Source of the DNA: Anaeromyxobacteraceae bacterium | GTDB taxonomy: Bacteria; Myxococcota; Myxococcia; Myxococcales; Anaeromyxobacteraceae | Length of the DNA stretch: 64,000 bases | Reading direction: 5' to 3' | Assembly: GCA_047602405.1 (NCBI GenBank) | Contig: JASGHJ010000002.1 | Location: 1,280,001-1,344,000 of the forward strand | Shown here: positions 42,027-51,936 of the stretch, piece after piece | Layout: each line of letters opens with the position of its first letter | How positions within the stretch are numbered: the stretch's first letter is position 1 | Translations under genes and position numbers: made by a program | Notes under the pieces: model-generated | The model's input: the letters and a program-made list of their open reading frames with translations, nothing else | What the model was told of the DNA's origin: nothing | The model's database searches: none

Positions 42027-44726
42027 ATGCCGACCCTCACGCTCATCGACGGCTCGGGCTTCGTCTACCGGGCGTTCCACGCCTTGCCCGGGCTCACCAC
42101 GACGAAGGGCCTCCACACCAACGCCGTCTACGGCTTCACGACGATGCTGCTGAAGGCGCTGCGCGAGCACGCGCCCACGCACGCCGTGCTGGTGCTCGAC
42201 GCCGGCCGCCGGAGCTTCCGCAACGACATCGACCCCACCTACAAGGCGAACCGCCCCGAGGCGCCGGACGAGCTGCGCGAGCAGTTCCCGCTCGTGCGCG
42301 ACGTGGCGCGGGCGCTCGCCGTGCCGCTCCTCGAGGAGCCCGGCTTCGAGGCGGACGACATCATCGGCACGCTCGCCTGCAGGGGGCGGGAGGCCGGGTT
42401 CGACGTGGTGGTCGTCACCGGCGACAAGGACTTCGCGCAGCTCGTCGACGGCAAGGTCTCGCTCTACGACCCGATGGCCGAGGCGAGCGGGCGCGGCGGC
42501 TGGACGGGGCCGGCGGAGGTGGAGAAGAAGCTCGGCATCCGCCCGGATCAGGTGGTCGAGTACATGGCGATCCTCGGGGACAAGATCGACAACGTCCCCG
42601 GCATCCCCGGCATCGGCGAGGTCACCGCGGCCGCCCTCGTGAAGCACTTCGGGACGGTCGAGGAGATGTTGAAGTGCCCGGAGGAGATCCCGGCGGCGGT
42701 GGCGCGCGGCGGCGAGAAGGTGAAGGCCAAGATCGTCGACAACGCCGGGCGCATCCGCACGAACCGCGCGCTCGTCACCATCAAGTGCGACCTCGAGGTG
42801 CCGTGGGATCCGGCCGCGTTCGCGCGGCGGGCGCCCGATGACGGAAGAGTCCGTGCGCTCTTCACCGAGCTCGAGTTCTCCCGGCTCCTCAAGGACCTGC
42901 CGGCGCCGCCGCCCGCGCCGCGCGCCGAGAAGGCGGAGCTCGTGCTCGACGCCGCCGCGCTCGAGGGCATGGCCGCCGCGCTCGCGGCCGCCCCGGACCT
43001 GGGCGTCCTGCCGGTGCTCGCCGGCGACGCGCCGCGCACCGAGCCGCTGGTCGGCCTCGGGCTCGCGGGCGGGGGCCGCGCCTTCTACGTGCCGCTCTCG
43101 CACCGCTACCTCGGCGCCCCCGCGCAGCCGAAGGCGGACGCCGTCGCGGCCGCGCTCCGGCCGGTGCTCGCCGGGGCGAGGCCGGTGCACGCCCACGGCC
43201 GCAAGGCCGCGCTGCACGCGCTCGCGGGCATGGGCCTCGCCCTGCCGGACGCGGGGCTCGACACCGAGCTCGCGAGCCGGCTCCTCCTGCCGACGCGCCG
43301 GGAGCACGCGCTCGCCGACGTGGCGCGGGAGCGGCTCGGGAACGAGCTGCCGCGCGACCCGAGCGGCTCCGACGCCAACCGGAAGTCGGAGCGGATGGCG
43401 CCGGACGGGATCGAGGTCGAGCGCACCGGCGCCTGGGCCGCGGCGAGCGCCGCCGCGATCGTGGAGCTCGCCGGGGCGCTCGGCCGCGCGCTCGACGAGG
43501 AGGGGGTGGGGCCGCTCTACCGCGACGTCGAGGCGCCGCTCGTCCCGGTGCTCTTCGACATGGAGCGCACCGGGGTGCTCGTCGACCGCTCCGCGATGGC
43601 CGGCATGAGCGAGGAGTTCGGCGCCTCGATGGCGGACCTCGAGACCCGCATCCACGGGCTGGCCGGCCACCCCTTCAACATCGCCTCCACCCGGGAGCTC
43701 GCGCAGGTGCTCTTCGTGGAGCTCGCGCTGCCGGTGCTGAAGCGGCTCAAGACCGGGCCCTCGACGGACCAGGACGTCCTCGAGAAGCTCGCCGAGCAGC
43801 ACGAGCTGCCGCGGCTCGTGCTCGAGCACCGCGCGCTCTCGAAGCTGAAGGGCACGTACGTCGACGCGCTCCCGCAGCTCGTCGATCCGGCCGACGGCCG
43901 GATCCACACCACCTTCCACCAGGCCGGCGCCGCGACCGGCCGGCTCTCCTCGACCGATCCCAACCTGCAGAACATCCCCGTGCGCACCGAGCTGTCGCGC
44001 CGGATCCGGGCCGCCTTCGTGGCGCCGGAGGGCTGGCGGATCCTCTCCGCGGACTACTCGCAGATCGAGCTGCGCATCCTCGCCCACTACTCCGGCGACC
44101 CCGCGCTCGCCGAGGCGTTCCGGAACCGCGAGGACGTGCACACCCGCACCGCCGCCGAGACCTTCGGCGTGCCGCCCGGCGAGGTGACCGCCGACCAGCG
44201 CCGCATCGCGAAGGTGCTCAACTTCGGCATCGCCTACGGCCTGTCGGCCTTCGGCCTCGCCCAGCGCCTCGATCTCCCCGGCTCGACCGCGCAGGGGATC
44301 ATCGACCGGTACTTCGCGCGCTACGCCGGCGTGAAGCGCTACGTCGAGAAGTCGGTCGAGGACGCCCGCGCCGCCGGCGAGTCGCGCACCCTGTTCGGCC
44401 GCGTCCGCGCCATGCCCGACCTCGCCGCCCGCAACCCCGCCCTGCGCAACGCCGCCGAGCGCACCGCGATCAACACGCCCATCCAGGGCACCGCCGCCGA
44501 CATCGTGAAGGTCGCGATGATCAAGGTCCACCGCGCGCTCCGCGAGGAGCGCCGGGCGGCGCGCCTGCTCCTCTCGGTCCACGACGAGCTCGTGCTCGAG
44601 GTGCCGGAGGGGGAGCTGCCGGTGATCGAGGCGCTCGTGCGGCGCGAGATGGCGGGCGCCGCGGAGCTCAGCGTGCCGCTCGACGTCGAGGTCGGCCACG
44701 GGCGGAGCTGGGCGGAGGCGCACTGA
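42027..44726 (+). CDS. polA: DNA polymerase I
   Basis: LIDGS..YRAFHA, EADD, TGRLSSTDPNLQNIP, DYSQIELRILAH, VHDEL. Confidence 0.98.
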   Translation: MPTLTLIDGSGFVYRAFHALPGLTTTKGLHTNAVYGFTTMLLKALREHAPTHAVLVLDAGRRSFRNDIDPTYKANRPEAPDELREQFPLVRDVARALAVPLLEEPGFEADDIIGTLACRGREAGFDVVVVTGDKDFAQLVDGKVSLYDPMAEASGRGGWTGPAEVEKKLGIRPDQVVEYMAILGDKIDNVPGIPGIGEVTAAALVKHFGTVEEMLKCPEEIPAAVARGGEKVKAKIVDNAGRIRTNRALVTIKCDLEVPWDPAAFARRAPDDGRVRALFTELEFSRLLKDLPAPPPAPRAEKAELVLDAAALEGMAAALAAAPDLGVLPVLAGDAPRTEPLVGLGLAGGGRAFYVPLSHRYLGAPAQPKADAVAAALRPVLAGARPVHAHGRKAALHALAGMGLALPDAGLDTELASRLLLPTRREHALADVARERLGNELPRDPSGSDANRKSERMAPDGIEVERTGAWAAASAAAIVELAGALGRALDEEGVGPLYRDVEAPLVPVLFDMERTGVLVDRSAMAGMSEEFGASMADLETRIHGLAGHPFNIASTRELAQVLFVELALPVLKRLKTGPSTDQDVLEKLAEQHELPRLVLEHRALSKLKGTYVDALPQLVDPADGRIHTTFHQAGAATGRLSSTDPNLQNIPVRTELSRRIRAAFVAPEGWRILSADYSQIELRILAHYSGDPALAEAFRNREDVHTRTAAETFGVPPGEVTADQRRIAKVLNFGIAYGLSAFGLAQRLDLPGSTAQGIIDRYFARYAGVKRYVEKSVEDARAAGESRTLFGRVRAMPDLAARNPALRNAAERTAINTPIQGTAADIVKVAMIKVHRALREERRAARLLLSVHDELVLEVPEGELPVIEALVRREMAGAAELSVPLDVEVGHGRSWAEAH

Positions 44727-44905: not shown

Positions 44906-44939
44906 GTTCACCAACTGTAACTTGATTGGGCGGACGTTG
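44906..44939 (+). repeat. Left inverted repeat GTTCACCAACTGTAACTTGATTGGGCGGACGTTG
   Basis: Inner 20 bp are the exact reverse complement of 46067-46086. Confidence 0.9.
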
Positions 44940-45324
44940 CCGCGGGGGAGAAGCCGCGTTCTCGGGCCTCAGTCCGCAGGTCGAGCTGCCAGGAGCCCTC
45001 CTCCCAGCGTTTCAGCGCCTCTCCGGCCGAGAAAGCAGCGAGCCCCTTGCCCCGCGCGAGTTCCTGCAGGACGCGACGAGCCTCGGCGTGCCGATGGCGG
45101 AGCAGGAATGCGGCGGCCATCACTCGGACGTGGGGTCTCGCCGTGAACATGAGGTGAGCCAGCGCATCGCGCCCCGCGTCACCCAGCGCCCGCAGTTCCT
45201 GGAAAGCTCGGAGGGCGAGCTGCGCGTGCTGGCTGCCGGTCTTCGCGTCGCCCTTCCAGATGGCGTCGGTCTGGGCCGCGACGTTGTCGGCGAAGCTCCT
45301 GACGAGCGTTTCGATCGGCCTCAT
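44908..45324 (-). CDS. DUF2019-like protein (putative polymorphic-toxin immunity protein), orphan
   Basis: FADNVAAQTDAIWKGDAKTG...GDAGRDAL...VRVMAAAFLLRH...ALKRWEEGSWQLD matches the myxobacterial DUF2019 pattern as I recall it. True stop may be the TGA near 44969. Confidence 0.7.
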   Translation of the reverse strand: MRPIETLVRSFADNVAAQTDAIWKGDAKTGSQHAQLALRAFQELRALGDAGRDALAHLMFTARPHVRVMAAAFLLRHRHAEARRVLQELARGKGLAAFSAGEALKRWEEGSWQLDLRTEARERGFSPAATSAQSSYSW

Positions 45325-46040
45325 GGGTCAGCGTCCGCGGCAGGCGCGTGGAGGGACGTATCTGACCGAGGGTGCGGACGGAAGCTCGAGCGGCCCCTTC
45401 GGCCCGCCGCTGCCCAGGGCTCGCAGCGGGTCAGCAACCACGTGCGTGGGGAGGAGACCGCGAAAGGCCGGCCGTCCGGCGCGAGCGCGGCGGCCGTCGA
45501 GAAGCGGTCGGCGTCCGCCTCCTGGACGGGCTCTCCCCGCCGCGAGGCGTGCGAGGCGAAGTTGTCGAGTACGTAGCGGAGCGCGTTCCGGACCTCGGCT
45601 GGGGTCCGGAGCAGGTGTGCGTGGTAGCGGTCCGCGAACACCTGGCCGCGGCGCTCCATCAGCGCGTTGAGCCCCTTCGCGAGACGGCCGGCGAGGGCGC
45701 GCATGCCCTGTGCGAGGGCTCCGGCGTCGGCGGCCTCCACGATGACGTGCAGATGGTTGCCCTGGACCGACAGGTGGATCACGCGGAAGTCCTCGCGGCT
45801 CCTGACGCCCTCGAGCGCAGCGGCGATCACCCGCCACGAACGCAGGCTGCGGAGGTTCCAGACGTGCTCGCGGACGCGGAGGGTCACGTGGACGGGGGTC
45901 CATCTGCCGAATCGGAGCGTGCGCCGATGGGAGACCCCGGGGCGTTCTCCGGAAGCCTTCCGCCCGGCGCCCGCCCGCTCCCCGCCCCAGCCGTTCACGG
46001 GCGGCAGGTCGAATGCGAGCTGCGGAGGGCGGGCGGACAC
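45321..46040 (-). CDS. REP-associated tyrosine transposase-like (Y1 HUH, IS200 superfamily)
   Basis: VHVTLR, HUH motif QGNHLHVIVEA, GQVFADRYHA, catalytic Tyr in NALRYVLDN, N-terminal GGERAGAGRK. Confidence 0.85.
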   Translation of the reverse strand: MSARPPQLAFDLPPVNGWGGERAGAGRKASGERPGVSHRRTLRFGRWTPVHVTLRVREHVWNLRSLRSWRVIAAALEGVRSREDFRVIHLSVQGNHLHVIVEAADAGALAQGMRALAGRLAKGLNALMERRGQVFADRYHAHLLRTPAEVRNALRYVLDNFASHASRRGEPVQEADADRFSTAAALAPDGRPFAVSSPRTWLLTRCEPWAAAGRRGRSSFRPHPRSDTSLHAPAADADP

Positions 46041-46066
46041 GCACGGATTGTCTCACCCGGGCCTGA

Positions 46067-46100
46067 CAACGTCCGCCCAATCAAGTCACTCAAGGTGAAC
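46067..46100 (-). repeat. Right inverted repeat
   Basis: Reverse complement reads GTTCACCTTGAGTGACTTGATTGGGCGGACGTTG. Confidence 0.9.
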
Positions 46101-46135: not shown

Positions 46136-46219
46136 CATCCTTCGACTTCGGGGTGCGCGGGCTGTCCAGGCGCCTCCGGACAGCCCGGGGCGGCGCGCCC
46201 CTACGCTCAGGATGAACGG
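46136..46219. repeat. REP-like nested palindrome (CATCCTTCGACT...CTACGCTCAGGATG)
   Basis: Nested stems CATCCT/AGGATG, GGGGTGCGC/GCGCGCCCC, CGGGCTGTCC/GGACAGCCCG. Confidence 0.6.
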
Positions 46220-46260
46220 CCAGGTGGGTGCTGCGGTACCGCCGCCATTGCTCCGCCCCG

Positions 46261-46332
46261 CTACTCCGCCTTCTTCGACCTCGCGGACGCGGCGAGCGGG
46301 ACCGGCTCCTCGCGCGGCTCGCGGAAGGCCTC
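46261..46332 (-). repeat. Displaced duplicate of the divIVA 3' end (att-like direct repeat of 51436-51507)
   Basis: 66/72 nt identical. Both copies encode EAFREPREEPVPLAASARSKKAE-stop. Confidence 0.92.
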
Positions 46333-51203: not shown

Positions 51204-51435
51204 CCCCCCCTGCACCGCAGGTCGACCCACACCTGCCAGCGCCGGACCAACGGGGGAGGCGCGGATCGCGGGCGATCCGGAGGGCTGGCCGGGCAGCGCT
51301 GGGGCATAAGCCCCAGCGGGCCGGCCGGTGGGGCATATCACGCACCCACAGTTCACTGACCGTGAGTCAGACGGCGGGTGTCAGGAACGGACGGTGATTC
51401 ACGTGCGGTGATGGGTCCCGGGCGGCGCCGGGGCG

Positions 51436-51936
51436 CTACTCCGCCTTCTTCGATCGGGCGGAGGCGGCGAGCGGCACGGGCTCCTCGCGCGGCTCGCGGA
51501 AGGCCTCGAGCAGCTTGAGGTGGCTCTCGACGATCATGCGGATGTTGCTCTCGAGCTGGACCCGCTGGCGCTTCAGCTCGTTGATGTCGTCGACGATCCG
51601 GAGGAACCGGCCGTGGGCGCCCTGGACGATCTTCTCCGCCTGGAGCTCGGCGTCGGCGAGGCGGATCTCGGTCTCCTTGCGGGCGGAGTCCTTGATGTCC
51701 TCGGAGGCCTTCTGCGCGGTGACGAGCGTCTCCTGGAGGATGCGCTCCTTCTCGCGGAAGGTGGCGATGTCCTCGGCCTTGCGCTGGTTGTCCTCGCGCA
51801 GGGAGGTGTTCTCCTTCACGAGCGCCTCGAACTCGGTGGCGATCATGGCGAGGAAGGCCTCGACCTCCTCCCGCGCGTAGCCGCGGAAGGCCCGGGGGAA
51901 CTGCTTCTGGGTGATGTCGAGGGGGGTGACGTTCAT
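51436..51936 (-). CDS. divIVA: DivIVA domain protein
   Basis: MNVTPLDITQKQF...FRGY..EEVEAFL followed by coiled coil. Confidence 0.92.
   Translation of the reverse strand: MNVTPLDITQKQFPRAFRGYAREEVEAFLAMIATEFEALVKENTSLREDNQRKAEDIATFREKERILQETLVTAQKASEDIKDSARKETEIRLADAELQAEKIVQGAHGRFLRIVDDINELKRQRVQLESNIRMIVESHLKLLEAFREPREEPVPLAASARSKKAE

Follow-up and report, generated by a model that had tools for sequence, protein, structure and literature searches.

A Y1/HUH nuclease clade with its own hairpin-free motif and variable adjoining DNA: a candidate cut-and-join system in myxobacteria

Downstream of polA, a gene for a Y1/HUH nuclease and a DUF2019-like gene are enclosed by two inverted repeats, and this arrangement raises the question of what brought the two genes together. 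The window, i.e., the whole stretch of DNA that was analysed, has a length of 64,000 nt and derives from a genome of 6.16 Mb, called G000 here; the other G numbers denote genomes of relatives. With a probability of about 0.58, the nuclease gene is a resident member of its Y1/HUH clade accompanied by its own motif copies, and its enzyme would bind the motif on single-stranded DNA, cut nearby and re-join other DNA to it. The following features were assigned:

42027..44726, plus strand: polA, the left neighbour, which converges directly on divIVA in most relatives (empty site)
44906..44939, minus strand: downstream motif copy, which reads AACGTCCGCCSAATCAAGTYAC-N5-GTGAAY (extended form) along the gene strand; the same motif is found in G010
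44908..45324, minus strand: DUF2019-family gene, a predicted orphan SitI-type immunity protein according to homologues and a sub-threshold Pfam match
44940..45431, no strand: replaced segment of 492 nt, from W201-L-L of the nuclease to the motif, in place of ~35 unrelated nt in G010
45321..46040, minus strand: Y1/HUH nuclease of a distinct Myxococcota-centred clade, assigned by motifs, fold and tree
46067..46100, plus strand: upstream motif copy, reversed relative to the nuclease gene, assigned by repeat comparison and alignment with G010
46139..46219, plus strand: copy of an abundant palindromic repeat, a neighbour outside the element, whose family is clustered around a GIY-YIG-like gene

The two repeat arms (44906-44939 and 46067-46100) are 34 nt long and 85% complementary; they are non-palindromic with a perfect core of 20 bp, as described in an earlier sequence-only reading of this DNA. 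Both open reading frames, of 239 aa for the nuclease and 138 aa for the DUF2019-like protein, are located between them on the minus strand. The ATGA overlap of the nuclease stop and the DUF2019-like start is present as reported, the stop codon of the DUF2019 frame is supplied by the downstream motif copy (44906..44939), and no target duplication is seen at the repeat-bounded locus. The short hairpins which the same reading had placed at the inner side of each repeat do exist, but they fold no better than shuffled sequences (z -0.44 to +0.06 for four longer segments) and are absent from the flanks of other motif copies. Since their folding is at shuffle level and conservation is lacking in the sequences flanking 52 motif instances, they are not part of the system and were ruled out as recognition sites. 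Beyond the element, a 74-bp, 92%-identical duplication of the divIVA 3′ end (window positions 46259-46332 and 51434-51507) brackets a 5.1-kb insert that is absent from G010. Two genes of this insert were named by eye, one for an RCC1-like repeat protein and one resembling a multi-CxxCH cytochrome.

The nuclease carries the HUH and tyrosine residues H96-L-H98 and Y156, and H96, H98 and Y156 are invariant across 28 aligned clade members. Its score for Pfam Y1_Tnp is 20.2 bits, below the cut-off of 23, and 40.8 bits were obtained for NCBIfam NF047646 (REP_Tyr_transpos; cut-off 80), a model matched by all 28 aligned members with a best E of 8e-12. An AlphaFold model (pLDDT 79.7) has its top Foldseek matches among IS200, ISDra2, TnpA-REP and IS608 structures, the top entries including 2f4f, 2xm3 and 4er8. 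Homologues and fold support the Y1 and DUF2019 assignments, whose Pfam scores are sub-threshold, and sequence and modelled structure place the nuclease as a predicted member of the TnpA-Y1 (HUH) superfamily.

The signature of the clade consists of GWGGxRxGAGRK, HVTLR, WNLRS, NHLH, RYH, YVLxN (YVLDN here) and W-L-L, followed by a variable tail, and the N-terminal extension GGxRxGAGR is characteristic of it. The last ~35 codons of the nuclease in the window are a read-through into foreign DNA. Y-x-x-x-N is found in 119 of 120 near matches and in 129 of 148 representatives, and P follows N in 0 of 248 scored Y motifs. The nuclease lacks the Y---Q seen in classes 1 and 3, and neither Pfam nor the structure model gave a C-terminal HTH. 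In a tree of 44 rows, which contains IS200 as one long-branch row and was built without E. coli RayT and four other intended references, a long branch (support 99/99, length 2.75) places the 28 clade rows on a side of their own, apart from the 2.1-like (Y[IV]HLNP), other Y---NP and RAYT-like rows. In this tree the nuclease belongs to a distinct clade, in support of the distinct HUH system suggested before.

The clade comprises 1813 matches among 7996 scored candidates, and 1814 clusters at 50% identity (E up to 1e-30). The best named relatives of the nuclease are from Anaeromyxobacter. A clade gene was detected in 34 of 301 sampled genomes of the phylum, mostly in the family of the source genome (15/39), and in one of 115 genomes of family f6. 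The search on plasmids gave no match, and of 55 candidates on viral contigs none was confirmed. Another Y1 clade, multi-copy and marked by the motif YxLANP, is common in the genus and has its own tree branch (L335-L352, with L338 at G000:C2:3137187-3137420).

The repeats belong to a motif with the non-palindromic core AxRTCYGCCSAWTCAAG, of which TCAAG is the most conserved part. The exact 20-bp core occurs twice in the 6.16-Mb genome. A profile search with the 33-bp form gave 13 copies scoring above 53 in G000 (peak of the reversed-genome control: 22), and the family profile gave 28 matches, 27 clear and one borderline, with none in the reversed control. The 13 copies of the extended type are the two described here, five solo copies and a six-copy 157-bp array, and a sister type accounts for 14 copies, arranged as direct repeats around two nuclease paralogues (46-49% identical). 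Across 52 instances, the extended motif has clear-cut boundaries; the five bases of its spacer vary, and the sequence on either side is random. The motif has no hairpin stem, its folding being no better than that of shuffles. A search of Rfam gave no match.

The profile was trained on one set of 47 loci and tested on 60 other clade loci. The core was found near 23 of these 60, seven of them in one assembly, vs. none of 72 control loci (238 kb), so that the repeat accompanies homologous nucleases elsewhere, as had been anticipated. Among 201 genomes of the order the motif is present in 14, all from the family of the source genome, with no control matches; ten of the motif-bearing genomes have a clade gene and one a gene fragment, in G023 and G063 motifs are present and no clade gene was found, and G164 is the remaining one. 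Of the 47 training loci, 20 have a direct upstream copy and 18 an inverted one, and in nine no upstream copy was detected. Direct copies often extend over the start codon. A downstream copy is present in 14 loci and missing in 33, and in four genomes of the genus the motif is located only at the gene start. Paired copies carry common element-specific variants. Eight of 11 paired loci are inverted and three direct, and both paralogues in G000 also have direct repeats, so the inverted orientation emphasised before does not define the system.

Several further arrangements of the motif were observed. The six-copy 157-bp tandem array (G000:C2:3676040-3677040), composed of the motif and a palindromic repeat linked to a GIY-YIG-like gene, lies beside a hexamer simple repeat, is a single unit in G010 and has a two-copy version with a period of 159 in G023. 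In G066, five or six motif copies form BIME-like head-to-head clusters (L392/L393). A motif-like 31-mer with one mismatch lies in frame within a long ORF of G023 (L162:694-2266, L174:766-2335), which by eye resembles an IS4-family transposase and is present in two copies, 99% identical. In G015, three nuclease paralogues (L090, L079, L054) share a conserved leader, ~55 nt long, on the 5′ side of the motif, and both solo and downstream copies are lacking; these paralogues are possibly a more sedentary sub-type. Replication-strand bias was uninformative, as GC skew is weak and motifs are found on both strands in both skew zones. Furthermore, dif, IHF, LexA and FNR sites were dropped as candidates, since the motif follows the nuclease and not replication or regulons.

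The closest comparison is offered by G010, whose identity to G000 is 93% in blocks totalling 707 kb. It likewise has, next to polA at the same site, the nuclease (77%) and both motifs without the DUF2019 gene, and the distance from W-L-L of the nuclease to the downstream motif is ~35 nt, vs. 492 nt in G000. The outer flanks of the element are unrelated between the two genomes, and homology stops exactly at the outer GTGAAC end of the upstream motif. The gene and its repeats are thus inherited at this site without the cargo, and the 1.2 kb is not the spreading unit that had been suggested. No clade gene was seen at 18 other polA loci of the genus, with divIVA within the fetched stretch in 13. 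G001, in turn, has after polA a 54%-identical clade member in an inverted-repeat element of opposite orientation.

Replacement of DNA at the motif edge recurs at other loci. At one orthologous site of G097, G123 and G151, the nuclease is common from the first base of the motif and the surroundings differ, and G063 has the motif alone there. Homology breaks at the motif edge between G123 and both G097 and G151, between the array and G010, between L220 and L221 and at the window locus. Two contigs of G029 are 94-95% identical and differ by an additional ~355 nt, whose end lies 3-4 nt short of the motif, and at one nuclease paralogue the genes found between two direct motifs are not the same in G000 and G010. 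The spacers between gene and motif range from 46 to 1188 nt (14/47 loci) and contain unrelated DNA, such as opposite-strand fragments of EcoEI-R and IS66, and small membrane proteins; Pfam scores were above cut-off for three of 19 cargo ORFs. Homologues therefore enclose variable DNA, as the sequence-only reading had supposed, and the cargo is not specifically of the toxin-immunity kind.

These comparisons also bear on the idea that the inverted repeats bound a 1.2-kb cassette which excises, inverts or transposes as a unit. Such a cassette would fit the eight inverted pairs among 11, the oppositely oriented element of G001 and a 1.38-kb nuclease insert of G015 at a site that is empty in G007. 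However, loci with direct repeats or a single motif are common, the outer flanks are replaced rather than kept, no clean empty site is found at the repeat ends, and near-identical genomic copies are lacking, given paralogues of 46-49% identity. Since the G001 nuclease is only 54% identical, an independent arrival is as likely there as an inversion. Neither target duplications nor fixed transposon ends were found at 11 junctions examined or at the G015/G007 site. Altogether, we consider a unit cassette highly improbable.

The DUF2019 gene itself appears foreign to its surroundings. Its Pfam score (PF09450) is 21.4 bits vs. a cut-off of 23.3, so the proposed HMM confirmation was not obtained directly, but PF09450 is annotated in many of its homologues (54-69% identity). 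Of the genomes of family f6, 44 of 69 contain homologues, vs. 2 of 68 (weak) in the family of the source genome; the gene is typical of Myxococcaceae, with named close homologues in Archangium and Corallococcus. The protein consists of a ~116-aa domain and a 22-aa read-through into the motif. Homologues mostly stop two residues past W-x-L-D (67 of those scored), where the G000 copy reads on, possibly due to a 1-nt frameshift or an assembly slip. In Myxococcaceae the genes usually overlap the stop of a long upstream ORF or follow another copy as tandem orphans, and the single upstream ORF tested matches SitA5_escort (E 7.6e-34; a partial match, below cut-off). SitA/SitI pairs are described as myxobacterial toxin-immunity operons in the text considered (PMC8546572). 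As its homologues follow long ORFs, of which the one tested is SitA5-like, and SitA/SitI pairs form toxin-immunity operons, the gene likely encodes an orphan immunity protein, in line with the immunity-like character proposed before. No cognate toxin was recognised either, the sequence upstream of DUF2019 being unlike Myxococcaceae toxin C-termini in any frame (by eye). The tail of the nuclease was ruled out as a remnant of a toxin gene, because no likeness was found in three frames. In the preferred reading, the DUF2019 gene is a passenger and not a functional partner of the nuclease.

Whether the nuclease brought in such passengers can be approached through the motif copies away from it. All 14 non-nuclease motif sites of G000 are located within, or directly beside, DNA that has no counterpart in G010. 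With sites treated as independent and one genome pair (G000/G010) compared, ten of the 14 lie in gaps of at least 400 bp (9/13 without the array, counted by hand), against a base rate of 46 in 463 gene junctions (crude gene calls) and 15 in 77 convergent junctions. The larger unshared side is 5′ of the motif in 9/10 (8/9 without the array, counted by hand), and the far ends of the inserts are ragged, without duplications. Exceptions to the 5′ polarity are C2:2968388, the G010 site L207 and the genes 3′ of motifs at both paralogues. A translocated fragment is suggested by L187:3152-3395, a piece of 244 bp which lies 80 nt past a solo motif and has its match in G010 (83%) at a different locus.

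The palindromic repeat linked to the GIY-YIG-like gene provides a comparison. It has 276 strict copies in G000, which cluster around this gene; the gene (G000:C1:1892746-1893161) lies within an array of the repeat. The GTAG-containing copy at 46139-46219 was ruled out as a cognate REP of the Y1 nuclease on account of this clustering. The repeat does co-occur with the motif in a fixed orientation: at 8 of 22 clear motif sites it is found on the TCAAG side, always oriented alike, at a distance of 60-165 nt.

It can be argued from this repeat that the nuclease spreads only its motif, in the manner of the TIRtrons discussed below, and that foreign genes accumulate independently at permissive sites, DUF2019 being incidental. 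The repeat lies in gaps of at least 400 bp at 11 of 21 sites (Fisher p 0.22 vs. the motif) and is also found near edges of lineage-specific inserts. Because this unrelated repeat is equally enriched, hot intergenic sites could give the pattern of the motif. In addition, the two repeats frequently co-occur, the motif is present in two of 48 inserts of at least 400 bp (805 kb) and missing from the other 46, and the element is adjoined by a separate insert of 5 kb that contains no motif itself. On the other hand, the cargo replaced only ~35 nt between two shared elements, such replacement with unrelated DNA recurs at many loci, the junction of the G029 pair is 3-4 nt from the motif, and the polarity of 9/10 contrasts with 7/11 outward for the GIY-YIG-linked repeat. 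We regard independent accumulation as rather unlikely.

For the preferred reading of a resident nuclease that cuts and re-joins DNA at its motif, the steps can be outlined by analogy with TnpA-REP. The nuclease would bind its cognate motif on single-stranded DNA, possibly through the N-terminal GGxRxGAGR segment, which we take to be AT-hook-like and whose role is a guess. Cleavage would occur close to the motif, and strand exchange via a 5′-phosphotyrosine would join the motif to other DNA. New DNA would arrive preferentially at the 5′ (AAC) side of the motif and leave ragged far ends without target duplication. Such cut-and-join activity would account for the dispersal of motif copies as well as for the foreign DUF2019 gene in the gap between gene and downstream motif. 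Against this reading speak the equal enrichment of the GIY-YIG-linked repeat, the motif-free majority of large inserts, the exceptions to the 5′ polarity, the 33 loci missing a downstream copy, the four genomes whose motif is confined to the gene start, the motifs of G023 and G063, and the need of known Y1 enzymes for hairpins, which the motif lacks. Of the earlier proposal of a distinct HUH system handling cargo, the distinct clade and the enclosed variable DNA were observed; that the nuclease itself captures the cargo is something we infer from TnpA-REP as probable.

The polarity could have a different origin. Nick sites of phiX174, pC194 and IS91 read CTTG/A (the slash marking the nick), and Helitrons and ISCR elements copy DNA beyond one end up to a ragged stop. 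The opposite strand of the motif, YAACTTG/AWT, presumably resembles these sites, and a nick there could start one-ended rolling-circle copying past the 5′ end. The conservation of TCAAG, the bias of foreign DNA to the 5′ side, the ragged ends without target duplication and the six-copy 157-bp tandem array would all be consistent with it. The inserts, however, do not end at CTTG but usually have 30-250 nt of unshared DNA beyond it, the extended subtype conserves 15 nt beyond CTTG, and the enzyme is of the Y1 type with an IS200 fold and not an IS91 Y2 Rep. This makes rolling-circle copying improbable.

A stronger form of the preferred cut-and-join reading is that the clade acts as a polarised gene-capture machine, which loads foreign genes and fragments at the 5′ edge of the hairpin-free motif, at the nuclease locus and at solo copies across the chromosome. 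We put this forward tentatively and consider it somewhat unlikely; if true, it would constitute an integron-like cassette system in myxobacteria without an integrase or a structured att site. The pairing of the clade with a linear motif of 18-33 nt would extend the ways in which HUH enzymes find DNA, and the clade would be a compact candidate for a tool that cuts and joins single-stranded DNA. Capture might also be a possible route for orphan immunity genes across myxobacterial families. With a defined enzyme and motif, a pair of genomes with and without the cargo and predicted junctions, the locus makes the capture idea directly testable.

Comparisons with known systems refer to the parts of the cited papers considered here. 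Y1 genes with terminal inverted repeats that are not REPs, also found as solos, dimers and clusters, were described as TIRtrons/TIRYT (Di Nocera et al., 2013, PMC3733652), and Quentin et al. (2018, PMC6006769) connected TIRYT with subclass 2.1 of TnpA-Y1. The architecture, which had seemed distinct, is therefore not new. The system described here is like TIRtrons in the non-REP inverted repeats flanking a Y1 gene, in solos, dimers and clusters and in its modest copy number. TIRtrons differ by the repeat motif GGGGWSAS, the Y---NP and the C-terminal HTH, none of which is found here, and, compared by text description, TIRYT belong with the subclass 2.1-like proteins from which the clade is separate in the tree. 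Unlike in TIRtrons, the motif is direct as often as inverted, often lies over the start codon and is adjoined by variable DNA. The function of TIRYT, as non-REP relatives of RAYT, is an open question; gene capture has been proposed and not demonstrated in the literature compared.

REPtrons and RAYT share with this system a low-copy Y1 gene inherited at its site, an own repeat with nuclease-specific variants, tandem and head-to-head repeat clusters and variable flanks. Recognition of REPs depends on a hairpin and GTAG (PMC8266576), and characterised Y1 nucleases recognise hairpins in the sources compared. REPs have a GTAG foot, a hairpin and hundreds of copies, whereas the motif has neither foot nor hairpin and tens of copies. 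RAYT also differ in the cut-off of 80 for NF047646 (40.8 here) and in Y---NP, which is absent here, and the GGxRxGAGR extension is found in this clade; the class signatures Y---Q and Y---NP are those of Table 1 of PMC6006769. E. coli TnpA-REP cuts at a distance on either side of its site and recombines, and sequestration of flanking genes by this enzyme was proposed (PMC3333891), so the idea of capturing flanking genes, too, had been put forward before.

TnpA proteins of IS200/IS605 have the same fold, the HUH/Y catalytic set and no target duplication, as here; their Y---Q, subterminal hairpins, near-identical copies and fixed ends are all absent. Prochlorosin genes are associated with TnpA-REP of subclass 2.1, for which diversification was proposed and the causal claim withdrawn by the authors (10.1101/2020.03.09.984088). 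That system is alike in having Y1 genes with variable neighbour genes and differs in its subclass and in a single cargo family vs. the unrelated cargo here. In the portions of the literature found, including 10.1101/119735 and PMC12077181, the clade, a hairpin-free motif in either orientation and polarised turnover of adjacent DNA are undescribed; the figures and supplements of Di Nocera et al. could hold a member, and none of five myxobacterial names appears in the supplements of Quentin et al. (2018). The protein clade and its motif are thus apparently undescribed, and the architecture is of the TIRtron/REPtron kind.
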